From NCBI GenBank assembly GCA_963703245.1, contig OY969803.1, positions 245,842-309,841 of the forward strand: a stretch of 64,000 nucleotides of DNA, read 5' to 3'. The DNA comes from an uncultured bacterium. Lineage in GTDB: Bacteria; Patescibacteriota; Minisyncoccia; Minisyncoccales; CAVTZN01. This document shows positions 1,676 through 46,288 of this stretch, piece by piece. The notes below the pieces were generated by a model that searched no databases, was not told where the DNA came from, and saw only the letters and a list, made by a program, of their open reading frames with translations. A program made the translations under genes and the position numbers. Position 1 is the stretch's first letter. The number at the start of each line of letters is the position of its first letter.

Positions 1676-2020
1676 ATGAAATTAACTTCCTTTAAAATTA
1701 CAATTCTTTTAGGCGTTCTGTTTTTAACAGCAGCGCCCTTTATCACCGAAGCCGCAACAATTCAGAACCCTTTAAAGGCCCAGTCTTTTGAAGAATTGAT
1801 AAATACGATTATTAATTTCATTGTCACTATTGGAGTAGTAGTGGCTCCAATTGTCATTTTATATGCTGGATTTCTAATCCTGACTTCCGGTGGAGAACCA
1901 GAAAAAGTAAAAAACGCCAAAAATCTTATTTTATACTGTTTAGTGGGCTTGGGAATTTTATTTTTAGGTAAAGGATTAATTTCAGTTATCAAAGATCTTT
2001 TTCAAGTTCAAGGTTCTTAA
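1676..2020 (+). CDS. Small secreted two-TM protein, TrbC/VirB2-like 'T4SS pilin' family as annotated in CPR genomes
   Basis: Signal peptide, then an NPLKAQSFEELI motif, then two hydrophobic helices separated by GGEPEKVKNAK. The protein is 114 aa and is a paralog of 2115..2456. Confidence 0.6.
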   Translation: MKLTSFKITILLGVLFLTAAPFITEAATIQNPLKAQSFEELINTIINFIVTIGVVVAPIVILYAGFLILTSGGEPEKVKNAKNLILYCLVGLGILFLGKGLISVIKDLFQVQGS

Positions 2021-2114
2021 TAATATTAAAGGTCGATCCCTTCGGCAGGCTCAAAATTGATGCTGAGTCGGGTCGAAGCATCGAAAAATAAAAATATAAA
2101 AAATAAAAAAATAG

Positions 2115-2456
2115 ATGAAAAAAGCAATAGTTTTAATCCTTCTTTCAGTTTTCGTTGCCTTTCCTGTTTTTGCTCAAATTACTGGAGTGATAACTCCTCC
2201 AGAAAAAATAAAAAGTTTTGAAGATGTTTTGGCTTTAGCAAATAACATTATCAATTATATTTTTACTGCTTTATTAGTGATGGCTGTTATTTTTATTCTG
2301 ATTTCTGCTTTCAATTGGTTGACTGCTGCTGGTGATACAGTTAAAACAGGAAAAGCGAGAGATCAGTTGATGTATGCTGTTATCGCTTTAGCTGTAGGAG
2401 CCTTAGCTAAAGGATTAGTTTATATGGTCTCCCGCTTGTTAGGCGTACAGATATAA
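2115..2456 (+). CDS. Small secreted two-TM protein, TrbC/VirB2-like 'T4SS pilin' family (paralog)
   Basis: Same architecture as 1676..2020: signal peptide, KSFEDVLALANNIINYIF, two TM helices and an AAGDTVKTGKARD loop. Confidence 0.6.
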   Translation: MKKAIVLILLSVFVAFPVFAQITGVITPPEKIKSFEDVLALANNIINYIFTALLVMAVIFILISAFNWLTAAGDTVKTGKARDQLMYAVIALAVGALAKGLVYMVSRLLGVQI

Positions 2457-6283: not shown

Positions 6284-6358
6284 GGCCCTGTCGTCTAGCC
6301 CGGTCCAGGACACCAGGTTTTCATCCTGGTAACACGGGTTCAAATCCCGTCGGGGCTA
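6284..6358 (+). tRNA. tRNA-Glu (anticodon UUC), no encoded CCA
   Basis: Same layout as E. coli tRNA-Glu: acceptor GGCCCTG/CGGGGCT (two G-U pairs), anticodon stem CCAGG/CCTGG, loop TTTTCAT, T arm ACGGG-TTCAAAT-CCCGT. Confidence 0.85.
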
Positions 6359-6369
6359 CATATAATAAA

Positions 6370-7905
6370 ATGGAAATAGATTATCTTAAAATTGGCAAAG
6401 CTTCCGATTTGAAAAGCTCGAAAGACCGAGCTCTTTTTCGTTTTTTCGAGATTTTGCCAGGCGTTTTATCTTTCGGGACTATATTTTTAGCAATTTTTCT
6501 TTCCTGGTTAAAACCAGTTTGGATTTCTTTTTTTATTATTTTATTCGCTATCTACTGGCTTATTCGGACCCTTTATTTTTCTTTCCACCTTAGGGCAACT
6601 TACAAAAAAATGAAAGAACATGAAAAAATTGATTGGATAGAAAAACTGAATAATCTGAAACAGGAAAACTGGCAAAATATCTATCATTTAATAATTTTTC
6701 CGATGTATAAAGAACCTTTAGAGATTGTACGAGAAACTTTTTTCGCCCTACTCAGCACCGATTATCCAAAAAATAAGATGATTGTTGTTTTGGCCTGCGA
6801 AGAAAAAACTAGAGATTCCAGTCAGATTGTAGCAGAAGCGATGGGAAAAGAATTTAGCGGAAAATTTTTTAAATTTCTTATAACTTGGCATCCAAATAAT
6901 TTAGTTGGAGAAATTACCGGAAAAGGCTCGAATGAAACTTGGGCGACCCGTCAGGTAAAAGAATTAATAATTGACCAATTAAAAATCCCTTATCAAAACA
7001 TTATCGTTTCTTCTTTTGATGTTGATACGGCAGTTTCCCCGAAATATTTTAGTTGTTTATCTTATCATTATTTAATTTCTGAAAAACCAAATAAAACCAG
7101 TTTCCAGCCAGTTCCTCTTTTTATAAATAATATCTGGCAAGCTTCTCCTCTTTCTCGAGTATTCGCCTTTTCAACAACTTTTTGGCAAATGATGTGCCAA
7201 GAAAGGCCGGAAAAACTAATCACTTTTTCTTCCCATTCGATGAGTTTTAAGGCTTTGGTTGATGTTGATTTCAAGCAGGTGAATGTTGTTTCCGATGATT
7301 CCAGAATTTTCTGGCAGTGTTTTCTAAGATATAAAGGAGATTATAAGGTTCAACCTCTTTATTATCCGTTATCTATGGACGCAAATGTGGCAAAAAGTTT
7401 TTGGCGAACACTGATAAATATTTACAAACAACAAAGAAGATGGGCTTATGGAGTGGGAGAGATACCTTATTTTATGTTTAATTTCTTAAAAAACAAAACA
7501 ATTCCTTTATCAAAAAAAATTCCCCTCGGATTTACCCTCTGGGAAGGACATTGGTCTTGGGCAACAAATTCAATAATTATCTTTTTATTGGGCTGGTTAC
7601 CTCTAGTTTTAGGGGGAAAGGGATTTGGTCAAACCCTTATTTCTTATAATCTACCCAAAATAACCAGCTGGATTTTGACCATAGCCATGGTGGGTTTGGT
7701 TTCGTCTGCTTATTTTAGTTTTATTTTATTGCCTCCCAAACCTCCGCAATACGGACGTTTTAAATATTTTATTGTAATTGTAGAATGGTTTTTAACCCCC
7801 CTAATTATGATATTTTTTACTTCAATTCCAGCACTAGATGCTCAAGCAAGATGGATGCTAGGAAAATATATGGGCTTTTGGGTGACGGAAAAAGTAAGAA
7901 AGTAA
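6370..7905 (+). CDS. Membrane glycosyltransferase family 2 (processive, cellulose-synthase-like)
   Basis: N- and C-terminal TM bundles, an SSFDVDT motif, and QQRRWAYG (QxxRW), the hallmark of processive GT2 enzymes. Confidence 0.65.
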   Translation: MEIDYLKIGKASDLKSSKDRALFRFFEILPGVLSFGTIFLAIFLSWLKPVWISFFIILFAIYWLIRTLYFSFHLRATYKKMKEHEKIDWIEKLNNLKQENWQNIYHLIIFPMYKEPLEIVRETFFALLSTDYPKNKMIVVLACEEKTRDSSQIVAEAMGKEFSGKFFKFLITWHPNNLVGEITGKGSNETWATRQVKELIIDQLKIPYQNIIVSSFDVDTAVSPKYFSCLSYHYLISEKPNKTSFQPVPLFINNIWQASPLSRVFAFSTTFWQMMCQERPEKLITFSSHSMSFKALVDVDFKQVNVVSDDSRIFWQCFLRYKGDYKVQPLYYPLSMDANVAKSFWRTLINIYKQQRRWAYGVGEIPYFMFNFLKNKTIPLSKKIPLGFTLWEGHWSWATNSIIIFLLGWLPLVLGGKGFGQTLISYNLPKITSWILTIAMVGLVSSAYFSFILLPPKPPQYGRFKYFIVIVEWFLTPLIMIFFTSIPALDAQARWMLGKYMGFWVTEKVRK

Positions 7906-7906: not shown

Positions 7907-10020
7907 TCATTCTAAGTGAATTCTCTTTTGAAGCTCATCTAATTTCGCCCGCAAGAGCGGGTATTTTTTTAATAGTGGATCTTTTTCCAAAATTTCTTTT
8001 GCGGTATTTCTTGTCCTTTCGACTAATTTTATATCTTTCAGTGATTTCATTACTAAATCAGGAAGTCCCCATTGCCTTCTCCCCGAAAAGTCTCCCGGTC
8101 CTCTTATTTCCAAATCTTCCTGCGATAGCGAAAATCCGTCTTCGCATTTTATTAAGGCTTTTAATCTTTGATGCGTTTTTCTTGAAGATGATTCCGTAAA
8201 CAACAAACAATAAGATTGATAATGAGATCTTCCCACTCTACCTCTGAATTGGTGAAGCTGGGCAAGGCCGAAATGTTCAGTCCCTTCTATCATCATTATT
8301 GTGGCGTTGGGAACGTCAATCCCCACTTCAACAACGGAAGTTGAAACTAAAATATTCGTTTTTCCCATTTTAAAATTCCTCATTATTCTTTCCTTTTCTT
8401 TGGATGCTATTTTCCCGTGAAGTTTTCCGACTTTCAAATCAGGGAAAATTTCTTTGGATAATTTTTCATATTCTTCGTCAACGGCTTTCGCTTCTTTCCA
8501 ACCGCCGAAATCATTTTTGTCGTCATTCTTCCCAGATTCTATTCTTGGGCAAATTACAAATGCCTGTCTTCCTTCTTCAATCTGCGCTCTTATAAAATTG
8601 TATGCGTCTTCTCTTTCTTCAGGCGGTAATTATTTTCGTAATTATTTTTTTCCTTCCTTTCGGCAATTCTGTTATCAGCGACAAATCAAGGTCTCCGTAA
8701 ATAGTGAGAGCCAAGGTTCGGGGGATAGGGGTAGCTGTCATTGATAGCAGATGAGGAATGAAATTTTTCTGTTTGCAAAGTTTAGCTCTTTGTTCAACAC
8801 CAAATCTGTGCTGTTCGTCAATTATTATTAAGGCGAGGTTGTTAAATTTCACTTCTTTTTGTATCAACGCGTGAGTGCCGATTATAATATCTATATCGCC
8901 AGTATATAATTTTTTCCAAAAGTTTCTTGCGGGAAATTTCTATAGTTTCATTTTTCAGTTTTTTAGCGCGCAATAGGTCGGTTTTACCGGTAAGCAAAGC
9001 AATACTTAATTTGAATTTGAATAATAATTTTGAAATTTCCTGAAAATGCTGCTTAGCTAAAATTTCGGTTGGCGCCATAATTACAGTTTGATACCCGGCT
9101 TTGGCCGCGTTCAATGCGGCTATTGTTGCCACAACCGTTTTTCCCGAGCCGACATCTCCTTCTAAAAGTCGGTTCATAGGATGGGATTTTTCCAAATCTT
9201 TCAATATCTGCCAACTTGCTCTTCGTTGGGAATCAGTGAGTTTGAAGGGCAAAGATTCAACGAAGTTTTTGATTTTCGGCAGATCGGTCGGAATTGAAAC
9301 TGATTTTGCTTTTAATATTTTTATTCTTTCTCTTAAAACGGAAAGCTCTATAAAGAAAAGCTCTTCGAAAGAAAATCTTTCCTGAGATATTTTTGCTAAA
9401 TCCATTGAATCAGGAAAATGAATTTGCCAAAGAGCTTTTTTAAGAGGCAAAAATTTTTCTTTTTTTATAATTTCTTCCGGCAGTGGATCTAAAATTTTAT
9501 CTCGAAACTGAGAAAGCAAGGGCTTTAAGATATAACGAAACCATCTTGAAGAAAGTTTTCTGGTTTCAGGATAAACTGGCACAATTCTCCCAACATGGGT
9601 TAAAGAAGTGGCTTTGCCGATTTTTTCATAAATAGGGTTGGAAAGATAAAAATCATTTTTTCTTGTGCTAACCTTTCCGGCCAGACAAACATTTTCTCCT
9701 TCTTTCAGAGTTTCTGTCAAATAGGGTTGGTTAAACCAAACCACTTTTATTGCTCCGGTTTTATCTTCGACAATCGCCTGAGTTAGAATTATTCTTAATT
9801 TAAAAATTCTTTTATTTTCTATTTTACTAATTTTCCCTTGAATACAGCCGAAACTTTTTGATTTTAACTGGGAAATGGTAATTATCTTTGAAAAATCGTC
9901 ATAACGATTAGGAAAATAATAAAAAAGATCTCGGATATTTTTCAACCCAAGTCTTTTAAGCCCTTTCTGGGAAACCGGTCCAATTCCGGAAATTTGAGAA
10001 AGAAGAGTGAATAAATTCAT
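7907..10020 (-). pseudogene. recG: ATP-dependent DNA helicase RecG, split over three reading frames by two 1-nt frameshifts
   Basis: Track ORFs 8842..10020 (wedge domain, GDVGSGKT Walker A), 8619..8867 ([18 protein letters not shown]) and 7907..8437 (VSTSVVEVGIDVPNAT, QLHQFRGRVGRS) are colinear RecG pieces. Homology continues across the junctions (…[15 protein letters not shown]…, …[32 protein letters not shown]…) when the frame is shifted. Confidence 0.85.
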
Positions 10021-10021
10021 G

Positions 10022-10094
10022 TGCGCCCGAGAGGAGTCGAACCTCTAAGCTTCAGGTCCGCAACCTGACGTTCTATCCATTGAACTACGGGCGC
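10022..10094 (-). tRNA. tRNA-Arg (anticodon GCG), no encoded CCA
   Basis: The reverse complement folds perfectly: GCGCCCG-TA-GTTC-AATGGATA-GAAC-G-TCAGG-TTGCGGA-CCTGA-AGCTT-AGAGG-TTCGACT-CCTCT-CGGGCGC-A. Confidence 0.9.
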
Positions 10095-10177
10095 GTAACG
10101 CTTTTTTAAAATTATCATAAAATCAAGCTCATTTCAATTGACTTTCATTAAATCTGAAGTTAAAATAAAAGAGAATT

Positions 10178-12387: not shown

Positions 12388-13482
12388 ATGATAAAATTTC
12401 CTTTTAGTTTTACTAAAAAAAATGCTTTAGGAATAGATATTGGCACTTTCTCAATAAAAATTGTTGAGCTTTCAAGAAAGGGAGAAAGGAAAATATTGGA
12501 AAATTACGGAGAAGTTTCTACTCGAGAGGCAGGCGAAAAACCATTTCGTACAGGTTTTGGTTTAGAAGGAGGTTCTTTTTTGCTTTCGAACCGAGAAATA
12601 TCACAAGGGATTAAAGCGATTTTAACAGAAGCTAAAATTAGTTGCCGAGCAGCCATCTTTTCTATCCCTGATTTTTCCAGTTTTTTCACCACAATAGAGC
12701 TTCCGTCGATGACAAAAGAAGAACTGCCAAAAGCCGTTGATTTTGCGGCCCGTCAACACATTCCCCTTCCGCTTTCAGAGGTTGTTCTCGATTGGTCAGT
12801 CGTTGGTGGAGAAGAGAAAATTGCCGATAATAATCTATTAAAAATTATTTTAGTCGCTGTTCCTAAAGAAGTTATTAACCAGTATCAGGAAATAAGCAAA
12901 ATTTGCGGTTTAAAACTTTTATCTCTCGAAGCCGAGGTTTTCGGTTTAGTTCGAGCCTTGATTAAAGAGGACAAGAGAGTTATTATTTTAGTAGATATTG
13001 GCGCTCAAAGCACCACTGTAAATATCGTTGCAGATAAATCTTTAAAGGCTAGCCACAGTTTTGATATCGGAGGGAAAGATTTGACTCAAACGATTTCTCA
13101 AAATTTCAACATTGACTTTTGGGAGGCTGAAGAACTGAAGAGAAAATACGGAATAATTCAAAAGCCAGAAGCCGTTTTTAATCAAAAACCTATTTCCGAA
13201 ATTTTACTCCCGAGGATCAATTTAATTTTAAATGAAATAGAAAAAATTAGCCAGAATTTTTATCAAAAAGAAGGGAAAGAATCACAAGTTCTTATTTTGG
13301 GAGGAGGCACAGCCTTGCTCCCCGGATTAAAAGATTACTTTGTTTCTCGGCTAAACAAGGAAGTAATTATTGCCAATGCCTTCCCGGATATTTTTTACCC
13401 TCAAATTTTAACCCCGGTTTTAAAAGAATTAAGCCCCAGTTATGCCATCGCCGTTGGTATGGCTCAACGGGGAATAGAGTAA
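12388..13482 (+). CDS. pilM: Type IV pilus assembly protein PilM (actin-like ATPase fold)
   Basis: ALGIDIGTFSIKIVEL N-terminal phosphate-1-like motif, VDIGAQSTTVNIV, LGGGTALLPGL. It is the first gene of the pil cluster. Confidence 0.75.
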   Translation: MIKFPFSFTKKNALGIDIGTFSIKIVELSRKGERKILENYGEVSTREAGEKPFRTGFGLEGGSFLLSNREISQGIKAILTEAKISCRAAIFSIPDFSSFFTTIELPSMTKEELPKAVDFAARQHIPLPLSEVVLDWSVVGGEEKIADNNLLKIILVAVPKEVINQYQEISKICGLKLLSLEAEVFGLVRALIKEDKRVIILVDIGAQSTTVNIVADKSLKASHSFDIGGKDLTQTISQNFNIDFWEAEELKRKYGIIQKPEAVFNQKPISEILLPRINLILNEIEKISQNFYQKEGKESQVLILGGGTALLPGLKDYFVSRLNKEVIIANAFPDIFYPQILTPVLKELSPSYAIAVGMAQRGIE

Positions 13483-13494
13483 ATTTTTAAAATT

Positions 13495-14052
13495 ATGGCA
13501 ATAGAAATTATTCCAAAACCAGAGGAGAGAAGACCAGCTTTTTTAATGAATATTTTCTTTTTTTTAGGGATTACTCTTTTAGTTTTATCTATTGCTGGAT
13601 ATGGTTATCTCCAATATAGTATAAGAAATACATCCCAGCATTTGAAAAATCTCGGGCAAGAAATTTTAGATAAAAGAACGCCCGAAGTTGAAAATTTGGA
13701 GAGAGAGATTTTAAGTTGGCGTCCTAAAATAGAAGATTATAATCTTATTTTCACTTCTCATAAAGCCCCTACTAATCTTTTTGAATTTTTAGAAAAAGTA
13801 ACCCATCCAAATATCTGGTGGGTTGATTTTGATTTAGATTTAACATCATCGTCCAATAATCTTAAATTAAAAGGCGTTTCTAAAGATTTTACTTCTCTGC
13901 AACAGCAGTTGATTGTTTTCGGGCAGGAAACATCCATTAAACAAATAACCTTAAACCAGCTTTCTTTAGCGAAAGGAGGGGGAGCAGAATTTGATTTAGT
14001 CCTTTCGGTTGACCCAAACGTATTTTCGCCAAAAATTTCCTCCCCCCAATAA
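13495..14052 (+). CDS. pilN: PilN-like bitopic pilus assembly protein
   Basis: Short cytoplasmic N-terminus, a single TM helix and a coiled-coil segment, positioned after pilM. Confidence 0.5.
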   Translation: MAIEIIPKPEERRPAFLMNIFFFLGITLLVLSIAGYGYLQYSIRNTSQHLKNLGQEILDKRTPEVENLEREILSWRPKIEDYNLIFTSHKAPTNLFEFLEKVTHPNIWWVDFDLDLTSSSNNLKLKGVSKDFTSLQQQLIVFGQETSIKQITLNQLSLAKGGGAEFDLVLSVDPNVFSPKISSPQ

Positions 14053-14056
14053 TTTT

Positions 14057-14575
14057 ATGAAAAAACCAATTTTAATTTTACTAATTTTTGCAATAATTAT
14101 CGCCATTTCAATCGGTCTGGTTTTGCCTTCTTTTGAAAAACTAAAAAATCTTTCATTGGAAGCCCAGCAGAGAGAAAAAGAACTTAAAGATTTGGAAGAT
14201 TATTTGTCCCATTTACAAAAAATATCACTTCAACTCAAAGAGTTCGCTCCTCAACTTGTAAAAATTGACCAAGGTTTACTACCCGATTCTTATCTACCCT
14301 CTCTCTTTACTCTTTTGCAAAAAATATCAGCTGAAAGCGGAATCAGTTTGAATGAAGTTAAAATTAGCCAGACAGGTTCTTTGAAAGAGAGCGAAAATAT
14401 AAAAGAAAGGGAAGTTAATTTTAACCTTTCCGGTCCTTACCAAAACTTTAAAAATTTTCTAACTTCTTTAGAAAATAGTGCTAGGCTTATTCAAACAACC
14501 AGCATCTCTTTTTCTACAAAATCTTCCAAAGAAATCCCAAAATACAATTTAAAAATCAAGGTTTACTCTTACTAA
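14057..14575 (+). CDS. pilO: PilO-like bitopic pilus assembly protein
   Basis: The start was set at ATG 14057 (MKKPILILLIF...). The protein has a TM helix plus a coiled coil (QQREKELKDLEDYLSHLQK) and follows pilN. Confidence 0.45.
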   Translation: MKKPILILLIFAIIIAISIGLVLPSFEKLKNLSLEAQQREKELKDLEDYLSHLQKISLQLKEFAPQLVKIDQGLLPDSYLPSLFTLLQKISAESGISLNEVKISQTGSLKESENIKEREVNFNLSGPYQNFKNFLTSLENSARLIQTTSISFSTKSSKEIPKYNLKIKVYSY

Positions 14576-14582
14576 AATATTC

Positions 14583-14864
14583 ATGGCAATAACTTTTATT
14601 AAACAAAAGAAAACGCAAAAATATCTAATCTACATCCTAATAGGGGCAGTAGTGGTTATGATTGTTGCCTGGTTTGTTTTTTTTAGAAAAACAGAAACTG
14701 TTTCCGTCCAGATTATCCCCATTGAGTCCTCTATGGCTTGGAAGAAAATTGATATAAGCCTCGAGATATTAGAAAATCCCATTTTTAAATCTTTAAAAGA
14801 ACTTGAGAAAGCGCCGACCTTTGAAGGAAAAACGGGCAGGATAAATCCTTTTTCTCCATTTTAA
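14583..14864 (+). CDS. Small single-TM protein of the pilus cluster (unknown role)
   Basis: 93-aa ORF with one TM helix, tightly packed between the pilO-like gene and pilB. Confidence 0.4.
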   Translation: MAITFIKQKKTQKYLIYILIGAVVVMIVAWFVFFRKTETVSVQIIPIESSMAWKKIDISLEILENPIFKSLKELEKAPTFEGKTGRINPFSPF

Positions 14865-14870
14865 AAATAT

Positions 14871-16598
14871 ATGTCTTTACTTCAAAGTCTTGAAAAAAAA
14901 GGGATTTTAAAAAAGGAAAAAGTAAGTGAATTAGAATACGAAATTAAAAAAACTGGGAAAAGCGCAGAAGAAATAGTTTTGGAAAAAGGAATTGTGCCAG
15001 AAGCAGATTTATTTAAATTGAAAAGTGAAATTTTTGGAATACCCCTCAAAGAAATACCAGCAGAAGAAATCCTTTTAAAGGTTCTGGAATTAATTCCAGA
15101 AGAAGCTGCTAGATACTACAAAATAATTCCCCTTACTCAGGACAAAAACGTTTTGGAAGTGGGGATGGTTTACCCCGAAGACTTAAAGGCTCAAGAGGCT
15201 TTAAGATTTTTAGTTAGGCAAGTAGGTCTTTTTCCAAAAATTTTTTTAATTAGTTTTTTTACTTTTGATTCTCTTTTAAAACAATATAGAACTCTTCGCG
15301 AAGAAGTCAAAAAAGCCTTATCGGAATTGGAAGTAGAGATAAAAAAAGAAAAAATAGAAATAAAACCCTTTAAAGCAACTGAATTTGAAAGATTGGTTGA
15401 AGAAGCACCAATTTCAAAAGTGGTTGCCGTAATTTTAAGACATGCCGTAGAGGGGAACGCTTCGGATATTCATATTGAGCCAGTTAAAAAGAGTTTGAGG
15501 GTTAGGTTTCGAGTCGATGGGGTTTTGCATTCAAGTATTCTTTTGCCTTTAAAAGTTCTGCCCGCCATTGTTGCGAGAATTAAAATTCTTTCCAATCTGC
15601 GGCTTGACGAAACGAGAATTCCTCAAGATGGTCGTTTTACAAGCGCAATTGATAATAAAGAAATTGATTTTAGAGTTTCAACCTTTCCAACTACTTTGGG
15701 AGAAAAAGTGGCCCTTCGTGTGTTGGACCCTTCTAAAGGAATGATTTCTCTTGAGGGGCTGGGATTTAGGGGGAGAGACCTAAATGTTCTTAATGAAGAA
15801 ATAAAGAAACCTTATGGGTTAATTTTATCTACCGGCCCTACAGGTTCCGGTAAAACAACTACTTTATACGCTATTTTAAATATTTTGAACAAAGAAGGAG
15901 TAAATATTGTTACCTTAGAGGACCCGGTTGAGTACTTCATTGAGGGGATAAATCAGTCTCAGGTCAGACCAGAAATCGGCTATTCTTTTGCCACGGGGCT
16001 TAGGCAGATTGTTCGGCAAGACCCAGATGTTATTATGGTAGGTGAAATTCGAGACGAAGAAACAGCCTCTTTAGCTATCCACGCTGCCCTTACTGGTCAC
16101 ATAGTTTTATCAACCCTACATACTAATAACGCTGTTGGTGTGATCCCCAGATTAATTGATATGGGAGTAAGTCCGTTTTTGTTGCCTCCCACCCTAAGTA
16201 TAGCCATTGCCCAGAGATTAGTGAGAGTTCTTTGCCCAGAATGTAAGAAGAAAGTAAAACCTTCCAAAGAAATTGAAAGTTTAATTTTAAAAGAAATTGA
16301 AACATTACCGGAAGCCACTAAAAAAAACATTCAAATTCCTAAATCTTTATATATTTTTGAGCCGAAGGGTTGTAAAAAATGTAATAACCAGGGCTATAAG
16401 GGAAGAATCGCGATTTTCGAGATTTTAGAAATGACGAAAGAAATAGAAAAAATAATTTTAACAGAATCATCAGAAACTAAATTTTCTGAATCAGCTAAGC
16501 ACCAAGGTATGATAACTATGAAACAAAGCGGTATTCTAAAAGTAATAGAAGGAATTACTAGTTTTGAAGAAATTTTAAGGGTGGCAGAAGAAAAGTAA
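14871..16598 (+). CDS. pilB: Type IV pilus extension ATPase PilB (GspE family)
   Basis: N-terminal GSPII_E-N-like domain, Walker A GPTGSGKTTT, RQDPDVIMVGEIRD, and a tetracysteine CPEC...CKKC motif. Confidence 0.85.
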   Translation: MSLLQSLEKKGILKKEKVSELEYEIKKTGKSAEEIVLEKGIVPEADLFKLKSEIFGIPLKEIPAEEILLKVLELIPEEAARYYKIIPLTQDKNVLEVGMVYPEDLKAQEALRFLVRQVGLFPKIFLISFFTFDSLLKQYRTLREEVKKALSELEVEIKKEKIEIKPFKATEFERLVEEAPISKVVAVILRHAVEGNASDIHIEPVKKSLRVRFRVDGVLHSSILLPLKVLPAIVARIKILSNLRLDETRIPQDGRFTSAIDNKEIDFRVSTFPTTLGEKVALRVLDPSKGMISLEGLGFRGRDLNVLNEEIKKPYGLILSTGPTGSGKTTTLYAILNILNKEGVNIVTLEDPVEYFIEGINQSQVRPEIGYSFATGLRQIVRQDPDVIMVGEIRDEETASLAIHAALTGHIVLSTLHTNNAVGVIPRLIDMGVSPFLLPPTLSIAIAQRLVRVLCPECKKKVKPSKEIESLILKEIETLPEATKKNIQIPKSLYIFEPKGCKKCNNQGYKGRIAIFEILEMTKEIEKIILTESSETKFSESAKHQGMITMKQSGILKVIEGITSFEEILRVAEEK

Positions 16599-16602
16599 AC
16601 CA

Positions 16603-16686
16603 CTACGAAATTACGAATCAGTACGAATATACAAATTTTTTAAAAGTAATTTATTTGTATATTAGTAAGAATTCGTAAATTCGTAG
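16603..16686. repeat. 84-nt imperfect palindrome filling the pilB-pilT spacer
   Basis: The 34-nt arms match at 29 of 34 positions (CTACGAAATTACGAATCAGTACGAATATACAAAT versus the reverse complement of ATTTGTATATTAGTAAGAATTCGTAAATTCGTAG). There are five TACGAA/TTCGTA hexamers. Confidence 0.75.
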
Positions 16687-16691
16687 AAACT

Positions 16692-17762
16692 ATGAATAAT
16701 TATTTATCTCAACTTAAAGAATTACTTAATGAAACCTATAAAGCGCAGGCTTCGGATTTACACCTTTCGGTGGGTGATTACCCGACTCTTAGGATTAACG
16801 GCGCTTTAATTCCCCTTTCTAAAAAGAAAATCTTGGCGCCAGAAGAAACACAAGGGTTGGCTACTGCTTTACTAAATGAAGATCAGATTCAGCGTTTTTT
16901 AAAAGAGAAAGAATTGGATTTTTCATATAATTTTGAAGATATCGCCCGTTTCCGAGTAAATGTTTATTTACAGAAAGGATATGTTTCTGTTGCCCTTCGT
17001 TTAGTACCAACAAAAATTAAAAATATTGAAGAATTAAATTTACCCCCGATTCTATACCGGTTTTGTCAGCCGACTCAAGGGTTTGTTTTGGTTACGGGTC
17101 CTTCTGGCCATGGAAAATCAACTACTTTAGCTGCCTTAATTAATGAAATAAATCATACAAGAGCAGATCATATAATTACAATTGAGGACCCAATCGAATA
17201 CATATTTAAAGACGATAAAGCGGTTATTGAACAAAGGGAAGTTTACCAAGACACTTTATCTTTTGCCCGGGCTCTAAGAGCAACCTTTCGTCAAGATCCA
17301 GATGTCATTATGGTTGGAGAAATGAGAGATTTAGAGACAGTGGCTACTGCTATTACAGCTGCCGAAACGGGCCATTTAGTTTTTGCCACTCTACATACTA
17401 ATAATGCTGCCCAAACCATCCATAGAATTGTTGATTCTTTCCCTGCTGAGCAGCAAACTCAAATCAGAAACCAATTAGCAGGTTCTCTTTTAGGAGTAAT
17501 TTCTCAAAGACTAATTCCTAGAGTTAAAGGAGGTTTAATTCCGGCTTGTGAAATAATGTTACAAAACCCCGCTGTTGCTAATTTAATTCGGGAGAATAAA
17601 ATTCACGAAATCAATTTAGTAATTGAAACTTCAGCCGATGAGGGAATGATTTCTTTAAATAGATATTTAGCAAATTTGGTTAGAATAAAAGAAATTTCTT
17701 TAGAGAACGCCATAGCCTATTCCTTAAATCCCGCTGAATTAAAGATACTGCTTAAAAAATAA
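16692..17762 (+). CDS. pilT: Type IV pilus retraction ATPase PilT
   Basis: 356 aa with Walker A GPSGHGKSTT, RQDPDVIMVGEMRD and the PilT signature AVANLIRENKIHEI. Confidence 0.85.
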   Translation: MNNYLSQLKELLNETYKAQASDLHLSVGDYPTLRINGALIPLSKKKILAPEETQGLATALLNEDQIQRFLKEKELDFSYNFEDIARFRVNVYLQKGYVSVALRLVPTKIKNIEELNLPPILYRFCQPTQGFVLVTGPSGHGKSTTLAALINEINHTRADHIITIEDPIEYIFKDDKAVIEQREVYQDTLSFARALRATFRQDPDVIMVGEMRDLETVATAITAAETGHLVFATLHTNNAAQTIHRIVDSFPAEQQTQIRNQLAGSLLGVISQRLIPRVKGGLIPACEIMLQNPAVANLIRENKIHEINLVIETSADEGMISLNRYLANLVRIKEISLENAIAYSLNPAELKILLKK

Positions 17763-17771
17763 CACAATACT

Positions 17772-17841
17772 AATCTACTAATCTTATGCTAATTTTTCGT
17801 TCTAATCGCATTTTTATAAATTAGCATTCCATTTGTAGATT
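17772..17841. repeat. 70-nt imperfect palindrome in the pilT-pilC spacer
   Basis: AATCTAC..ATGCTAATTT pairs with AAATTAGCAT..GTAGATT (7 + 10 bp around an internal loop). CTAAT(C) is repeated four times. Confidence 0.65.
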
Positions 17842-17854
17842 TAAATTATATTTT

Positions 17855-19063
17855 GTGAAGTTTAATTACACTGCCCGAAATAAACAAGGGGAAATTCAAA
17901 TGGGAGAAATTACCGCTGCCTCTGAAGAGGCAGCGACTGCTCTTTTACAAAAGATGGGTTTTTTTATCACATCGTTAGAAGAAACTGCCGAAATTCCTCT
18001 TTTTTCTAAAAAAATTCGTCTTTTTTCGAGAATTTCAAGAAAAGACATAGTTTTATTCTCTCGCCAGCTTTCTATCCTTATTAGCTCAGATGTTCCTTTG
18101 GTTGAATCTTTGAGAACGCTATCCTCTCAAGTCAAAAATCCAGATTTCAAAGATAAAATTTTAGAAATTTCCGAGGAAGTAGAAGGTGGAACAGCTTTTT
18201 CTGATGCTCTTTCGCACCATCCTAAAAATTTTTCTGCCTTTTTTGTCAATTTGGTAAAATCCGGAGAAGCATCAGGAAAATTATCTCAAGTTTTATCTTA
18301 TTTAGCCGAACATTTAGAAAGAGATTATTATCTCACTTCAAAGATTAAAGGAGCGATGGCTTATCCTGCTTTTGTTTTATTCACTCTTTTAATCGTTTTG
18401 GTCATAATGGTTATTTTTGTTCTTCCGCAATTAATAGCAGTTTTAAAAGAATCGGGCGCTCAAATTCCTTTGATTACCCGAATCCTTATTTTTGTTATCG
18501 AGTTTTTGCGGACAAAGGGCTGGATAATTTTAATTTTTTTAGTTCCTGGAACAATCTTCGCCTGGCGTTGGAGAAATACTCCAAAGGGGAAAGAATTTTT
18601 TGACAAAACTTTTATTCGTTTTCCTTTAATCGGCGGTTTTTTAAAAATGGTTTATCTTTCTCGTATTGCCGAGAGCTTAAGTACATTGCTTGCCGGAGGA
18701 ATATCTATTACTAGGACCTTGGAGATTACCGCCGACGTAGTAGGGAATGCCACCTACAAAGAGATAATCTTAAAAACCCGAGAAGAAGTTAGAAAAGGAG
18801 AATCAATAAGTTCGGTTTTTTCTCTTTTTCCAAAAGAGATTCCTCCTTTATTTACCCAAATGGCAATGGTGGGAGAAAAGACCGGAAGATTAGATTCAAT
18901 TTTAGTCAATATTTCAAATTTTTATAGAAAAGAAGTAGAAGTTTTTACTGACAATATTTTAAGCCTGATTGAGCCGGTGTTGATGGTTATTTTGGGAATA
19001 ACAATCGGTTTTTTCGTCGCCTCAATTATGCTTCCTTTGTATTCGAGCTTAAGCGGAATTTAA
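17855..19063 (+). CDS. pilC: Type IV pilus platform protein PilC (GspF family)
   Basis: 402 aa with two GspF-type repeats (…FSRQLSILISSDVPLVESL… and …SRIAESLSTLLAGGISITRTL…) and three TM segments. GTG start. Confidence 0.8.
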   Translation: MKFNYTARNKQGEIQMGEITAASEEAATALLQKMGFFITSLEETAEIPLFSKKIRLFSRISRKDIVLFSRQLSILISSDVPLVESLRTLSSQVKNPDFKDKILEISEEVEGGTAFSDALSHHPKNFSAFFVNLVKSGEASGKLSQVLSYLAEHLERDYYLTSKIKGAMAYPAFVLFTLLIVLVIMVIFVLPQLIAVLKESGAQIPLITRILIFVIEFLRTKGWIILIFLVPGTIFAWRWRNTPKGKEFFDKTFIRFPLIGGFLKMVYLSRIAESLSTLLAGGISITRTLEITADVVGNATYKEIILKTREEVRKGESISSVFSLFPKEIPPLFTQMAMVGEKTGRLDSILVNISNFYRKEVEVFTDNILSLIEPVLMVILGITIGFFVASIMLPLYSSLSGI

Positions 19064-19103
19064 AAATCCCTTGTTCAATAAAGTTGGTCTGTTGAAAAAA
19101 TAG

Positions 19104-19132
19104 TTGACCTGTTATATTAGAAGTTATAAAAT
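19104..19132 (+). promoter_or_regulatory. Putative sigma-70 promoter of the major pilin gene
   Basis: TTGACC-N17-TAAAAT, about 57 nt upstream of pilA. It is preceded by a near-duplicate, AGTTGGTCTGTT / AGTTGACCTGTT. Confidence 0.4.
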
Positions 19133-19189
19133 ATATTAAGAATACACAAAAAGGTCGAATCTTAAAAATTAACAAATTTACAATTAAAA

Positions 19190-19666
19190 ATGTTACAATT
19201 TTTTACTAATAAAAAGAAAGGTTTCACCCTAATTGAACTTTTGGTAGTTATCGCTATTATTGGTATTTTAGCCTCGATTGTTTTAGTTGGTTTTAATACA
19301 GCTAGAAGCAGAGCTAAAGATACTGCCGTTAAAGCAGCCATGGCCGAATTAAGAGCAGCGGCTGAATTAGATTACGATACTAATGGAAATTACAATAATG
19401 TTTGTACGGAAACCGGAGGCTCAAGCGGCAATAGTGTTTTGGGCACCACTGGAGACTTTGGAAGGATAAATACCAATGTAAAATCTAATAATGGTGGAAC
19501 AGATGTAGTTTGTAATGAAGCAGGAACTACCGCAGCTAGCACTGGCTGGGCTGCCTGGAGTTCTTTGGTTGCTGCAAGTGGAAAATATTTTTGCGCTGAT
19601 TCATCAGCTTCAGCCATCCAAAGAGATACTGCACCATCAGCCGACGCAACTGCTTGTACTCCATAA
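19190..19666 (+). CDS. pilA: Type IV major pilin (prepilin)
   Basis: Class III signal KKKG|FTLIELLVVIAIIGILASI with Glu+5. The C-terminal domain is Gly/Thr/Ala-rich with paired Cys residues, and the gene is locally GC-richer than its surroundings. Confidence 0.85.
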   Translation: MLQFFTNKKKGFTLIELLVVIAIIGILASIVLVGFNTARSRAKDTAVKAAMAELRAAAELDYDTNGNYNNVCTETGGSSGNSVLGTTGDFGRINTNVKSNNGGTDVVCNEAGTTAASTGWAAWSSLVAASGKYFCADSSASAIQRDTAPSADATACTP

Positions 19667-19703
19667 AAAAGAAAGGATAACATATCTAAAGGATAATAGT
19701 TTT

Positions 19704-19740
19704 AAAACCGAAATCGCAAATTTGCGATTTTGGTTTTTTT
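19704..19740 (+). terminator. Rho-independent terminator after pilA
   Basis: AAAACCGAAATCGCAAA / TTTGCGATTTTGGTTTT, a near-perfect 17-bp palindrome followed by a T run. Confidence 0.75.
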
Positions 19741-19769
19741 ATTTAAAACAAATAGGGTATAATTAAAAA

Positions 19770-20564
19770 ATGCCTGATTATTTTTTCTATTTAATTATTT
19801 TTATTTTCGGTCTAATTGTGGGGAGTTTTTTAAATTGTATAATTTACCGCATAGAAAGCGGTAAAAGTTTTTTAAAAGGTCGTTCTTTCTGTCCAAATTG
19901 TCATCACGAATTAAGCTGGCAGGATTTAATTCCTCTTCTCAGTTTTTTAATTTTAAAAAGAAAATGCCGTTATTGTCACCAGAAAATTTCTCTCCAATAT
20001 CCTTTAGTAGAACTATTTACAGGTTTCTTATTTGTTTTAACTGCTTATTATGTTCTATCTTCTTTAAACTTCCAAAATTTACTATTTACTATTTACTATT
20101 TAATAATTATTAGTTTCCTAATTATCATTTTCGTCTATGACCTAAAGCACTATATTATTCCCGACAAGATAGTTTACTCGGCTATTGGTATAACCCTTTT
20201 TTACCAATTGTTTAGAATTTGGGATTTTGGTAATTGGAATTTATTTAGGGCTTCGGATTTAGGATTTGGGGTTTTACCATCGTTAATTTTTTTAGTAATA
20301 ATTTTATTTTCTCGCGGACAGTGGATGGGTTTAGGTGATTTTAAATTGGCAGTTTTAATGGGGCTGTTTCTTGGTTTCCCGAATATCGTAGTAGCTCTAT
20401 TTTTAGCTGTTTTTTGGGGTGCTATAATAGGATTAGGATTAGTGATTTTTGGCGGAAAAAAACTATCAAGCGAAATTCCTTTCGGGCCATTTTTAGTCAC
20501 GGGAACATTTGTCGCTTTATTCTGGGGACAACAAATAATTAATTGGTATTTTAATTTTTTATGA
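19770..20564 (+). CDS. pilD: Prepilin peptidase (A24 family) PilD
   Basis: Polytopic membrane protein with the CPNC...CRYC zinc motif, plus the catalytic Asp contexts VYDLKHYIIPD and GLGDFKL. Confidence 0.8.
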   Translation: MPDYFFYLIIFIFGLIVGSFLNCIIYRIESGKSFLKGRSFCPNCHHELSWQDLIPLLSFLILKRKCRYCHQKISLQYPLVELFTGFLFVLTAYYVLSSLNFQNLLFTIYYLIIISFLIIIFVYDLKHYIIPDKIVYSAIGITLFYQLFRIWDFGNWNLFRASDLGFGVLPSLIFLVIILFSRGQWMGLGDFKLAVLMGLFLGFPNIVVALFLAVFWGAIIGLGLVIFGGKKLSSEIPFGPFLVTGTFVALFWGQQIINWYFNFL

Positions 20565-21817
20565 AACAAAAATTGAAAAGCAATGAGGGGTTTAGTATTA
20601 TTGAAATTCTGGCAGTAATGGCAATTATTGTTACTATCTCGGGGATAGCCATAGTTAATTGGAGATCGGGAGAAAAGCAGTATGCTTTACAGAGAGCAGC
20701 AAGTAAGCTTAGCCAGGATATAAGGCGAGCCGAAGAATTAGCCATGTCAACGAAACAATTTCAAGGTCAAGTTCCCGAAGGGGGATATGGAGTTTTTTTT
20801 AAGGTTTCAGAAAAAGACCACTATATTTTATTTGCCGACCTTAATAACAATAATCATTATGATCCTGGTTTAGATGGTTTAGTTGAGGATATTCCGCTTG
20901 AAAAAGAAATCCAAATCAGCCAGTTATCACCTTCCTCTCCCTTACATATAACCTTTACTCCTCCGGAACCAACCGTGACAATCACACAAGACGCTTCAGA
21001 AGCCCAAATTACTCTTTCTATTAAAACCGACCCAACGAAAATAAAAATCATAAAATTAAATAAAGCAGGTTTAGTTTATATTTTTTCTCCCTATACTCTT
21101 TCTGTTTCTAAATCTGGCACTGGTTCAGGAACAGTAACAAGCTCGCCAGACGGCATTAATTGTGGAACAGACTGTTCTGAAGCTTATACTTCTATTAATT
21201 CAGTTACTCTTACTGCTTTTGTCGATTTTGGTTCTACCTTTTCAGGATGGTTAGGAGATTGTACAGGAACAGGAAATTGCGTTTTAACTATGGATGCCAA
21301 TAAGGGTGTGACCGCAACGTTTAATTCCTGTTTTGCCAATGGTACATTATGTAATTCAGAAAGCCAATGTTGTTCAGGTTATTGTTATGTTGACGCAGAT
21401 GGAGACCGTTATTCTCCTTCTTCGGGAACTAAGAAATGTCAAGTTATTTCACAAATTACTGGCACTGATAATAATGATTCTTCTCCTTGTACTGATAACT
21501 ATGCTGAGTATGCGGGTACCTGTACCACTACATGCAAGGGCTGTATTACTGGTGCCTGTGTTAATATTCCAGCTGGAAGCCAGGACACCTACGGGAGCAA
21601 TACATGCACGACTACCCACTACCGCTGCGATGGCTCAGGAGCTTGTACAGCACCGACCGTCTGTACTGGCAGGTTAGCCTATCAGAGTTGCGATCAATCA
21701 TGCACTAACTCTGGATACTCAACTTGTATTACTGGTTATAACGGCAATAATTGTACTAGTACAACGAGGGCTTGTAGTTCTGCGTATTCTTGGACTTGTC
21801 GGTGTTATCGGTACTAA
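20561..21817 (+). CDS. Minor pilin (GspH/FimT-like N-terminus) fused to a B-repeat-like module and a Cys-rich C-terminal domain
   Basis: Prepilin signal NEG|FSIIEILAVMAIIV. It is followed by YTLSVSKSGTGSGTVTSSPDGINCGTDC...FSGWLGDCTGTGNC (divergent InlB-B-repeat-like), then a tail of about 150 aa with roughly 30 Cys, including CYVDADGDRY. Confidence 0.7.
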   Translation: MKQKLKSNEGFSIIEILAVMAIIVTISGIAIVNWRSGEKQYALQRAASKLSQDIRRAEELAMSTKQFQGQVPEGGYGVFFKVSEKDHYILFADLNNNNHYDPGLDGLVEDIPLEKEIQISQLSPSSPLHITFTPPEPTVTITQDASEAQITLSIKTDPTKIKIIKLNKAGLVYIFSPYTLSVSKSGTGSGTVTSSPDGINCGTDCSEAYTSINSVTLTAFVDFGSTFSGWLGDCTGTGNCVLTMDANKGVTATFNSCFANGTLCNSESQCCSGYCYVDADGDRYSPSSGTKKCQVISQITGTDNNDSSPCTDNYAEYAGTCTTTCKGCITGACVNIPAGSQDTYGSNTCTTTHYRCDGSGACTAPTVCTGRLAYQSCDQSCTNSGYSTCITGYNGNNCTSTTRACSSAYSWTCRCYRY

Positions 21818-21897
21818 TAAAACATATTTATTAATTAAAGAAATAATTAGAGTAGGATTTATTATTTAAAATTATCAGCTTATAAAAAAATAAGAAA

Positions 21898-24026
21898 ATG
21901 AAAATATCTAGGCATTTCAAAACTAAACAATCCTCCAGCTTTACATTAGTTGAAGTTATGGTTTCTTTGTTTGTTTTATTTACTGCAATTATAGGAGGGA
22001 TGGCCGCAGTCAATAGAGGACTAGATACAATCCAAAATAGCAAATCAAGACTGATAGCTGCTAATCTTGCTCAGGAAGGCATAGAGCTAATCAGAAATAT
22101 AAGAGATAATAATTGGCTCGACGTATTCAAAGAAATAAGCTTTTTAAACCAAGGGTCAAAAATCACAAACAAAGAAATCCCCAGGATTGAAAGTAGAGGA
22201 GCAGAAATAGGCGATCCTTGGCTTTCAGACTACGGCTACCGCAAACAAATAACAATAACTGGCACAACTGCCGGCGCCCAGACCAACTACCAGATGAAAC
22301 TCACTGTCTACAAAGGCAGCGGCACTGATTCTGGTTCAAACGTGTATCTTAACAACCATGTCCAGGACGACTTTGACGATATACGCTTTACCAAATCCGA
22401 CGGCACAACCCAATTAGATTATTGGGTAGAGTCTTATACCTCCGGCACCTCAGCCACGGTCTGGGTTGAATTTGATTCTATTCCTGCTTCACCTTAAACC
22501 GCTAATTTCTACATATACTATGGTAATGCTTCAGCGACTTCTGCGAGTTTAATGGCGATAATACATTTCAGTTTTTTGATGATTTTGAAACAGGTACTAT
22601 ACAATAAATGGTCTATTTTCTAATATCTTGGATAATACGATTCGTTCAATTGAAAAAAGCAGGTAGTTACTTCTGCAAGGGAGGTTCCTCTATTTGCTCA
22701 ATTAAAGATATTACAAACTTCTAAAGCCGTTTAAGAGTAGGACTGGTTTAGATTGGAGAAAATGACTACAATATCATTATCCAGCTATCTCTACTGACAA
22801 CAGTAGCTACTACACTTCATATCTATGTGAGTTTGGGTCGTAGCGAGAGCAAAATGGTTATTTCGGATATTATAATGGCACCTGGCGTACAAAAATTATC
22901 CAGTTAATACTACCATCTTATGTAATACGCGTGGCGATTTTATACAATTAATTTTTGATCTTTGGCTCAACGGAAATATTAGGTCTATATAGATGGTACA
23001 GTTAAGAAACTACCATCAAGGTTTAAGTGCTGAAAAACGATGCCGGTAGTATTCCTAGCGCTTTAACCGACTGGCGATTATTAAACACAGCCAGTGATAC
23101 ATTGGAATATGTGGGCAATTTCTAGGAATTATGGTATGTCTCCCGAACCCTCTTTCGGAGTTTGGGGGAGCGAAGAAGAATCTTTGGCTACCCTTCTTGT
23201 TTCTCTAGAGGCTGTGCCCAATTCTGGTACAGCTCCCTTAAATGACGTTGATTTAAAAGCGACAGTTTCTGGCACAGCTACAGGAAATATCAGGTACACT
23301 TTTTACTGTAACCGCGCCGATTCAGGAACTAATATTACTGGCGACTGGAATCACCAGACAGACTGGACAAGTATAAATCCCTATACTACAACCGATGTTT
23401 GTGATTATGCTTCAGAAGGTACTTATACTGCCAAAACTATTGTAGAAAGAGGAAGTTTAGCTGCTGAGGATAGAGAAACAATTATTGTTTCTTCCGGCAC
23501 CCCACCACCACCTCCTCCACCACCGCCCCCTCCACCTCCTTCACCGGCTACTTCTTGGACTGATAGCTTTTTTGCCTGTGGTCAGACTTCTTGCGATTGG
23601 GAAGTTGATTATCAATCTCAAAGACCCCTACAATCTTATCAAGGAAGATATTTAAAATTAGATAATACTTATGGATTTTATAATTATACCAGTGGAAATG
23701 ATACTAAATTTCAAAGGAAAATTACTGTCCAAAAAATAAGCAATGATCAAATAAGAGTTATTTCGAAAGTTGAGTGGAAGGAAAAAGGAAAAACATATAA
23801 TCTTACCGCAGTTGAAGACCTGTATAATTGGTTAGGATTATCAACCAGTCCGGGTTGCCTTATGTGCTATTCAGATGTTGATTTCGATGGCGATGGGTAT
23901 AAGAACAGTTATGCTTCCCAATTTTGTGACGTTGAATCCTGTCCTGAAGGTTATTCTAATATCCCTGGCGCAAATACAGATTGCGATGACAATAACGCCT
24001 CAATTTATCCTGGACAGGGTTGTTAA
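21898..24026 (+). pseudogene. Giant modular minor pilin (PilV-like helix + DUF2341/LamG-like + PKD-like + poly-Pro + pilin beta-domain + Cys/Asp motif), with its central ~600 nt degraded
   Basis: 21898..22497 reads SSS|FTLVEVMVSLF then WLSDYGYRKQITI...YWVESY...VWVEF (DUF2341-like). 22498..23093 still reads FYIYYGNASATSAS / GDNTFQFFDDFETGT / KAGSY..GGSSICSIKDIT, but across many frames and stops. 23094..24026 resumes with a PKD-like fold, a P14 run, a pilin C-domain and DCDDNNASIYPG. Confidence 0.7.
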
Positions 24027-24070
24027 GATAAACGTTTAAGCCAGAGTATTATAAAAATATAAAAATCAAA

Positions 24071-24604
24071 ATGAATAATAAATCTTTCACTATAATAGAG
24101 CTTTTGGTAGCCATAGGGGTTTTTTCAGTTGTTATCGCTTCAGCGGTCGGAATTTTTACTACAGCCATAAAAGGACAAAGGAAAGCTTTGGTTACCCAGG
24201 AAATTTTAGACCAAACAAGCTATACTTTGGAATATATAAGCAGGTCGATTAGAATGGCGAAAAAAGACATTACGGGTAGCTGTATTACATTAGGTTCTAA
24301 TTATGAATTAACTCGAGGAGAAAAAGGAATAAAGTTTAAAGATTATCAAAATGTTTGTCAGGAATTTTTTCTTGAAGAAGGAAAATTAAAACAATCAAAA
24401 GGAGGAGAGATTACAGATTTAACTTCGTCAAATCTTGAAATGACCTCCCTTAACTTAAACCTTACTGGCGCTTCAGATAGTGATGCTCTTCAGCCGAGGA
24501 TAACAATTGCCTTGTCTATAAAAGGAAAAGGACAAAAACCAGAAGAAAAATCTGAAATCAAGCTTCAAACAACAATTTCTCAAAGAAACCCAGATTTAAA
24601 ATAA
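24071..24604 (+). CDS. Minor pilin (prepilin-type N-terminal cleavage domain)
   Basis: NNKS|FTIIELLVAIGVFSVVIASAVGIF with Glu+5; 177 aa. Confidence 0.7.
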   Translation: MNNKSFTIIELLVAIGVFSVVIASAVGIFTTAIKGQRKALVTQEILDQTSYTLEYISRSIRMAKKDITGSCITLGSNYELTRGEKGIKFKDYQNVCQEFFLEEGKLKQSKGGEITDLTSSNLEMTSLNLNLTGASDSDALQPRITIALSIKGKGQKPEEKSEIKLQTTISQRNPDLK

Positions 24605-24605
24605 T

Positions 24606-32803: not shown

Positions 32804-32808
32804 AAACT

Positions 32809-46204: not shown

Positions 46205-46286
46205 TGCGGATGGTGGGATTCGAACCCACAAGCCTTACGGCATACGGTCCTGAACCGTACGCGTATTCCAGTTCCGCCACATCCGC
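46205..46286 (-). tRNA. tRNA-Leu (anticodon CAG), type II, no encoded CCA
   Basis: Reverse complement: GCGGATG-TG-GCG-GAACTGGAATA-CGC-G-TACGG-TTCAGGA-CCGTA-TGCCGTAAGGCTT-GTGGG-TTCGAAT-CCCAC-CATCCGC-A. Confidence 0.9.
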
Positions 46287-46288
46287 TT

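Follow-up and report, generated by a model that had tools for sequence, protein, structure and literature searches.

How can a protein gene be expressed when its start codon lies directly against a transfer RNA gene, with no more than one or two nucleotides (nt) between the two? The question is raised by a 64,000-nt stretch of DNA, hereafter the window, from an uncultured bacterium of the Patescibacteriota with a tiny genome (order Minisyncoccales; GenBank assembly GCA_963703245.1, contig OY969803.1 of 516,640 bp, positions 245,842 to 309,841). Within it, the genes recG, rnj and a CYTH-domain gene each begin immediately behind a tRNA gene. We find that such abutment of tRNA and ATG is genuine, is conserved and occurs widely among related genomes, and we propose that maturation of the tRNA could also create the 5' end of the mRNA behind it.

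Three tRNA genes abut protein start codons

ARAGORN found seven tRNAs in the window, and Rfam RF00005 confirmed all seven with the same 3' ends, at 54.8-69.3 bits (gathering score, 29) and with model positions 1-71 covered in 7/7. Five of them have a co-directional downstream open reading frame (ORF) that starts within 130 nt, and in three of those five the gap is at most 2 nt, which upholds an initial annotation, made by reading the window alone, that had counted three abutting tRNAs among seven in 64 kb. At recG, the geometry it had described, with the discriminator at 10022, a single C at 10021 and the ATG at 10020-10018, came back at the same coordinates from ARAGORN, Rfam and the sequence itself. 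All seven pairs of the tRNA-Arg(GCG) acceptor stem are formed (7/7), and CCA is not encoded. The two further cases that it had named are present as well: the tRNA-Leu(CAG)/rnj junction reads CGC-A-C-ATG and is locally identical to that of recG, and a 2-nt version, with a CT spacer ahead of ATG 59955, occurs at tRNA-Ser(GGA)/CYTH (Table 1).

Table 1 Coordinates of the tRNA/start-codon junctions and of the features that flank them.
Feature	Position	Strand	Basis
tRNA-Glu(TTC), followed by the 11-nt spacer CATATAATAAA and the ORF 6370..7905	6284..6358	plus	ARAGORN, Rfam
recG coding region, with two frameshifts at A-runs	7907..10020	minus	tblastn and DNA at the breaks
recG start ATG	10018..10020	minus	First start past the upstream stop; matches Met1 of >100 RecG homologues
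Lone spacer C (tRNA position 74)	10021	minus	Sequence
tRNA-Arg(GCG), CCA-less, discriminator A at 10022	10022..10094	minus	ARAGORN; Rfam RF00005, 69.3 bits, model 1-71; minimum-free-energy cloverleaf of the precursor
AT-rich spacer of 83 nt between the divergent tRNA-Arg and tRNA-Ser(GCT) genes	10095..10177	minus	Sequence
rnj (RNase J), with five frame changes in this assembly	44528..46203	minus	Pfam Lactamase_B and RNase_J_C on fragments; tblastn
tRNA-Leu(CAG), CCA-less, followed by C 46204 and the rnj ATG 46203..46201	46205..46286	minus	ARAGORN, Rfam, sequence
Glucose-6-phosphate isomerase gene (pgi), stop ending 2 nt ahead of the tRNA-Leu(CAG) 5' end	46289..46909	minus	Pfam PF06560; distance
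M48 peptidase gene, stop ending 7 nt ahead of the tRNA-Ser(GGA) 5' end	58963..59859	plus	Pfam PF01435; distance
tRNA-Ser(GGA), CCA-less, followed by CT 59953-59954	59867..59952	plus	ARAGORN, Rfam, sequence
CYTH-domain gene, true start ATG 59955	59955..60491	plus	Pfam CYTH; homologue lengths and starts

The abutting ATGs are the true starts

We judged the start codons from the N-termini of more than 100 homologues for each of RecG, RNase J and the CYTH protein. These alignments, a check that the initial annotation had set for itself, place the start of all three proteins at the abutting ATG and of none downstream. Nearly all of the 120 best RecG homologues start M-N-L-S-T-P-I-E, which aligns with MNLFTLLSQ in the window. 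RNase J homologues start a few residues ahead of an (I/V)PLGGLGEVG motif, and CYTH homologues, which are 175-183 amino acids (aa) long, start right before NIEVEVRSF. A start further downstream was considered for each of the three genes and rejected, as no later in-frame start keeps these conserved N-terminal motifs.

The mechanical CYTH ORF and the deposited 208-aa gene call both run in frame through tRNA-Ser(GGA) from an ATG at 59865, the true length being 178 aa. N-terminal extensions that are likewise translated tRNA occur in the database proteins P0042, P0100, P0102, P0129, P0143, P0171 and P0209, and also in P0241; examples are ...RFDSYRGH/MNL in P0042 and ...CGFKSHPRH/M in P0171. Because these calls extend upstream into translated tRNA, the same abutment exists elsewhere and gene callers mishandle it. 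Such read-through of the tRNA affects the annotation of this clade systematically.

Tight tRNA/ATG junctions are widespread among relatives

For comparison with relatives we used 160 loci (L001-L160), all from Patescibacteria and about 2 Mb in total: half are recG neighbourhoods from genomes (80) and half rnj neighbourhoods from metagenomes (80). ARAGORN called the tRNAs. The gap behind each tRNA runs from its discriminator to where a co-directional ORF of 80 aa or more has its first start codon; the control consisted of divergent ORFs, with distances taken from the 5' end of the tRNA. The window and the 160 loci hold 308 tRNAs, of which 248 have a co-directional downstream ORF. The gap is 0-4 nt in 41 of these 248, against 1/123 in the divergent control. 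Among the tight gaps, 17 measure exactly 1 nt, which is the mode, and 14 measure 2 nt, over a baseline at 100-399 nt of 0.31 per nt. The distance distribution that the initial annotation had called for thus has a sharp spike at 1-2 nt that is not due to chance, and abutment of tRNA and ATG occurs far above the expectation from random placement. The start codon is ATG at 40/41 tight junctions, which involve 12 tRNA species and no fewer than 12 gene families, among them pth, the genes for ribosomal protein L25 and an MscL-like protein, and that of the membrane protein behind tRNA-Glu.

The individual pairings recur to different extents. tRNA-Arg (GCG, sometimes CCG) lies ahead of recG in most of the 80 loci, at a gap of at most 5 nt in 17/80 genome loci and of 8-20 nt in six more. 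In L005 (770..855), tRNA-Leu(TAG) rather than tRNA-Arg(GCG) abuts recG with the same C-ATG, a junction that apparently arose independently. tRNA-Leu(CAG) precedes rnj by 1-8 nt in 13 independent metagenome loci, in 11 of which rnj is intact at 555-583 aa. The ORF behind tRNA-Glu(TTC) encodes a membrane protein of 511 aa in the window, and the corresponding gap is 0-2 nt in L005, L013, L016, L019, L027, L029 and L153.

Compaction extends to the other side of the tRNA. The stop of an upstream co-directional ORF lies between a 1-nt overlap and 4 nt ahead of the tRNA 5' end for 27 tRNAs in the window and the 160 loci, and 18 tRNAs are sandwiched tightly on both sides, including both cases of the window, pgi-2nt-tRNA-Leu-1nt-rnj and M48 peptidase-7nt-tRNA-Ser-2nt-CYTH. 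With stops up to 7 nt from the tRNA 5' ends (window 46287..46291 and 59857..59866), cleavage by RNase P would leave a 3' untranslated region of near-zero length.

The pairing of tRNA-Ser(GGA) with CYTH is not conserved in the relatives compared for it (L161, L163, L164 and L167). The close relative L161 (2441..3001) has the order M48 peptidase, tRNA-Ser(GGA) with CCA, a 147-aa ORF and CYTH; no tRNA lies near CYTH in L163 and L167, and four genes separate the two in L164. The window is without the 147-aa ORF and the CCA of L161, which puts tRNA-Ser(GGA) 2 nt from CYTH. Judged from these gene orders, this tight junction looks young, and a recent deletion looks to have created it.

Signals for translation and transcription around the junctions

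A Shine-Dalgarno (SD)-like 4-mer at -20..-4 precedes 4/52 long ORFs in the window and 107/1071 ORFs in the clade. All sampled loci are SD-poor, and loci with and without tight junctions do not differ in SD use. The 3' end of 16S rRNA, sought for an anti-SD check, was not found in any locus of the sample. The initial annotation had stressed that the junction leaves no room for an SD sequence. A 1-2-nt spacer indeed admits none, but this is not the telling point and carries little weight, because the whole sampled clade hardly uses SD sequences; spacers of 8-20 nt in relatives are also without one (for example caaaaaat and ctacaaaaat). The telling point is the composition of the sequence ahead of the start. 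Upstream regions in the clade are normally A/U-rich without G enrichment, with a G+C content of 0.17-0.29 per position from -20 to -1, whereas the 20 nt ahead of the tRNA-abutting ATGs are G+C-rich and, in the predicted fold, locked in the acceptor and T stems.

The spacing between -10-like hexamers and ATG peaks at 6 nt, with 60 cases against a background of about 10; examples in the window are 19770, 38760 and 42112. Because such a peak is the signature of promoter-born leaderless mRNAs, these are probably common in the Patescibacteria sampled here, and leaderless initiation is probably routine. The tight junctions share with leaderless genes the lack of an SD sequence and the preference for AUG, but not a 5' end made by a promoter. 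The initial annotation had held that the junction leaves no room for a promoter, and no promoter-like hexamer pair with at least 8/12 matches lies inside tRNA-Arg, tRNA-Leu(CAG) or tRNA-Ser(GGA). Given spacers this short and no internal promoter, co-transcription with the tRNA would be forced. For the tRNA-Arg/recG transcript, the 83-nt spacer ahead of tRNA-Arg is the sole available promoter site. Minus-strand hexamer matches in it are weak and we assigned no promoter there; on the plus strand, a TTGACT-17-TAAAAT pair suits tRNA-Ser(GCT).

The spacer behind tRNA-Glu holds a perfect TATAAT, 16 nt downstream of a TTCAAA in the T-loop (window 6330..6369). It is probably not the promoter of ORF 6370, as it ends just 3 nt before the ATG, and it may be there by chance.

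tRNA 3' ends and the enzymes that could process them

Position 74 is a C in 271/308 tRNA genes of the clade (88%), whatever lies downstream. CCA is encoded in 77/308 (25%), and position 75 is A in 45%, C in 32% and T in 20%. After the discriminator, the three abutting tRNAs read CAT or CTA with no encoded CCA, a trait of RNase Z substrates, and the spacer starts with CCA at only 1/41 tight junctions (L032). A conserved lone C74 is unusual and may reflect contact with RNase P or a 3' cut after C74. Its conservation does not settle the cut site, since the base might as well be retained for the RCCA contact made with RNase P RNA.

RNase Z is a candidate for the enzyme that would make the 3' cut. 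A phmmer search with a provisional B. subtilis RNase Z query gave no match among 1964 ORFs of the window and loci L001-L160; the loci cover two gene neighbourhoods, too narrow a sample for the result to count for or against an rnz gene. In Propionibacterium acnes, which is without tRNase Z, endonucleolytic cleavage after C74 has been mapped (PMC3848588), and canonical CCA-adding enzymes have been reported for Patescibacteria (bioRxiv 10.64898/2026.05.29.728689). The tRNA precursors of the window fold as cloverleaves, and the processed mRNAs would begin with a predicted unpaired stretch of 19 nt for recG and 36 nt for rnj.

Frame breaks in recG, rnj and dnaG

Both recG frameshifts, at about 8911-8915 and about 8620-8640, fall in A-runs, and the intact 684-aa homologue P0008 splits over three frames of the window gene in tblastn. 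Every segment of rnj is 59-83% identical to an intact 559-aa homologue (ungapped tblastn). dnaG is split into two overlapping ORFs (61233..63027), and rpoB and rpoC (29525..36462) form one long ORF each, of 1092 and 1217 aa. Fragments of the broken recG, rnj and dnaG are all highly similar to intact homologues. The breaks look like the product of an indel-prone assembly with homopolymer errors more than of gene decay, the alternative being very recent pseudogenization. The spacer length in this assembly could itself be off by +/-1 nt; relatives have the same 1-2-nt spacings.

The first rnj break (about 45540..45580, at about aa 222, after ...SEKxIxENLE) recurs at the same place in several independent assemblies. 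A frameshift with the same out-of-frame tail is seen in P0125, P0169, P0173, P0182 and P0183, and in the relative L169 (1230..1400) the break takes the form of an in-frame TAA where the consensus is Glu. rnj is intact in most loci (L082-L131). The break presumably falls close to where the MBL and beta-CASP domains of RNase J meet. Recoding, a tolerated split or a hot spot of homopolymer error could each account for it.

A proposed route from tRNA processing to mRNA

We favour, with moderate confidence, an explanation in which these loci are tRNA-punctuated operons, where 3' processing of the tRNA would also release a leaderless mRNA with a 5' monophosphate. From the gene arrangement we infer co-transcription, the position and enzyme of the cut, and translation of its product, as follows. 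The tRNA and the protein gene behind it would be transcribed as one RNA, which in two of the three cases probably also includes the protein gene in front. RNase P would cut at the tRNA 5' end. An endonuclease of the RNase Z type would cut on the 3' side, directly behind either the discriminator or the conserved C74, and the tRNA would then be completed by the CCA-adding enzyme. That 3' cut would also leave an mRNA that carries a 5' monophosphate and has 0-2 nt ahead of its start codon. At the C-ATG junctions, classical RNase Z cleavage after N73 would yield C-AUG, and cleavage after C74 an exact 5'-AUG. The processed mRNA would be translated by SD-independent initiation of the leaderless type, which is apparently used for most genes of the clade.

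A broader proposal, which we would not quite call probable, is that Paceibacteria-type Patescibacteria run a bacterial form of mitochondria-like punctuation. Excision of operon-embedded tRNAs by RNase P and a 3' endonuclease would at once give upstream mRNAs that end 0-7 nt past their stop codons and downstream leaderless mRNAs with a 5' monophosphate. This would be set within a superphylum-wide mode of translation that is free of SD pairing and by default leaderless, whether promoter-born or processing-born, and the supply of certain tRNAs would be coupled stoichiometrically to the mRNAs of recG (DNA repair), rnj (RNA decay) and the translation factors pth and L25.

Weighing the alternatives

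Several observations weigh against tRNA-punctuated operons, and some of them speak for one serious rival, namely that the junctions are a neutral by-product of extreme compaction and that each precursor gives either a tRNA or an mRNA, never both. Ribosomes would then translate the precursor either unprocessed or cut only at the tRNA 5' end, melting the tRNA or passing around it, and downstream cuts followed by exonucleolytic trimming would destroy the mRNA whenever a tRNA is made. Gene-gene junctions in these genomes are similarly compact, with 177/1129 overlapping and a further 104 at a gap of 0-4 nt, so that compaction alone could yield the tRNA/ATG geometry. The tRNAs are packed like any cistron, but the consequence differs, as no upstream ribosome can pass translation on over an intervening tRNA. 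In some relatives an encoded CCA precedes the ATG (CCA, 1-4 nt and ATG in L032, L072, L082 and L088), and in L169 (569..660), which is not among the 41 tight junctions, the CCA of tRNA-Leu(CAG) shares its A with the rnj ATG (...GGC-A-CC-ATG). That overlap is hard to explain by a single fixed cleavage site: one cut after A76 could not mature the tRNA and leave the start codon intact as well, and obtaining both products from one molecule would need CCA repair. No rnz, cca or rnpA is among the roughly 50 Pfam-annotated ORFs of the 64-kb window, and C at position 74 is not the residue favoured by known RNase Z enzymes, going by work in B. subtilis. Finally, recG and rnj are frameshifted here, and their products may not be made as such in this genome. 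Against an either/or fate stands the composition of the upstream 20 nt, G+C-rich and stem-locked where the SD-less starts of the clade are A/U-rich. ATG is also near-obligatory at tight junctions, as expected of initiation at a 5' terminus, and the junctions persist at the housekeeping genes recG, rnj, pth and L25 across many lineages. We regard an either/or fate as unlikely, although it is the competitor to be taken seriously.

Far less credible is a promoter inside each tRNA gene that would drive an independent, promoter-born leaderless mRNA with tRNA processing uninvolved. The 6-nt peak in the spacing of -10-like hexamers fits such promoters, as does the TATAAT of the tRNA-Glu spacer with its -35-like TTCAAA in the T-loop. 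That TATAAT is too near its ATG to start transcription there, however, positions -12..-7 of the abutting genes consist of G+C-rich acceptor-stem sequence, and the hexamer scan rules out an internal promoter at the three junctions. We give hardly any credence to a third possibility, that the abutting ATGs are not real starts or that the junctions are assembly artefacts or pseudogene remnants. Frame breaks are many in the window (two in recG, five in rnj and a split dnaG), and a spacer error of +/-1 nt is conceivable; yet the alternative in-frame starts all forfeit the conserved N-terminal motifs, and the same 1-2-nt junctions occur with intact genes in dozens of independent assemblies.

Comparison with known systems

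The closest analogue of tRNA-punctuated operons is the punctuation of animal mitochondrial transcripts by tRNAs, reportedly described by Ojala, Montoya and Attardi in 1981 (cited in PMC4633059), with its leaderless mRNAs. The mitochondrial likeness drawn by the initial annotation holds at the DNA level, where tRNAs are directly flanked by same-strand protein genes, but does not extend to the completion of stop codons by polyadenylation. Unlike in mitochondria, upstream genes here keep complete stop codons, placed from a 1-nt overlap to a few nt ahead of the tRNA, and polyadenylation is unneeded. In both systems tRNAs lie 0 to a few nt from protein genes on both sides, such that their excision would define mRNA ends, and mRNAs are, or here would be, essentially without a 5' leader, with no SD sequences. 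Punctuation in the Patescibacteria would differ in operating on a bacterial chromosome with many promoters and in affecting a minority of genes, and the arrangement arose independently.

Among bacteria, the E. coli thrU-tyrU-glyT-thrT-tufB operon is a case in which tRNAs share a transcript with a protein gene downstream of them and are processed out of it. Ahead of tufB there are about 100 nt that include a separate ribosome-binding site, in contrast to the 0-2 nt found here. The promoter-born leaderless mRNAs of Actinobacteria and Deinococcus (PMC3898074, PMC4633059, PMC4007540) resemble those proposed here: AUG lies at the 5' end or a few nt inside it, initiation does not depend on SD pairing and ATG is strongly preferred. 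They differ in that their 5' end comes from transcription initiation and bears a triphosphate, whereas here it would come from RNA cleavage and bear a monophosphate. Endonucleolytic cleavage inside or beside the CCA in P. acnes, with a cut after C74 and repair by nucleotidyltransferase, offers a precedent that would turn C-ATG into an exact 5'-AUG mRNA, although there it was reported for stand-alone tRNA genes and not connected to the making of mRNA (PMC3848588).

Creation of leaderless mRNA by an endonuclease rather than a promoter, as in our proposal, has also been reported for MazF in E. coli (Vesper et al. 2011, as cited in PMC4681348), a finding said to be disputed. MazF is a stress-induced toxin that cuts at ACA sites and leaves a 5'-OH, whereas we propose constitutive tRNA maturation. 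Full-text literature searches gave no account of tRNA/start-codon abutment or of processing-born leaderless mRNAs in bacteria of the candidate phyla radiation (CPR).

Other features of the window

Away from the junctions, the window carries a type IV pilus cluster (12388..25004) that encodes PilM, PilO, two T2SSE ATPases, T2SSF, a prepilin peptidase, several N-methyl pilins and PilX. Two small proteins resembling T4SS pilins are encoded at 1676..2456. Type IV pilus clusters of this sort are typical of episymbiotic CPR bacteria.

Implications

Gene callers tuned to ribosome-binding sites mis-annotate genes that abut tRNAs in this way. The arrangement also poses questions about the biology of these bacteria: how leaderless 5'-monophosphate mRNAs would arise and survive in a bacterium that has an RNase J gene, how ribosomes would terminate on an mRNA that ends a few nt past its stop codon, where a near-zero 3' untranslated region may set termination in competition with ribosome rescue, and how far genome compaction can go. 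If tRNA punctuation is borne out, a large and mostly uncultivated branch of bacteria would make some of its mRNAs by excising tRNAs, a mechanism thought typical of mitochondria, and would translate the resulting mRNAs without leaders or SD pairing.

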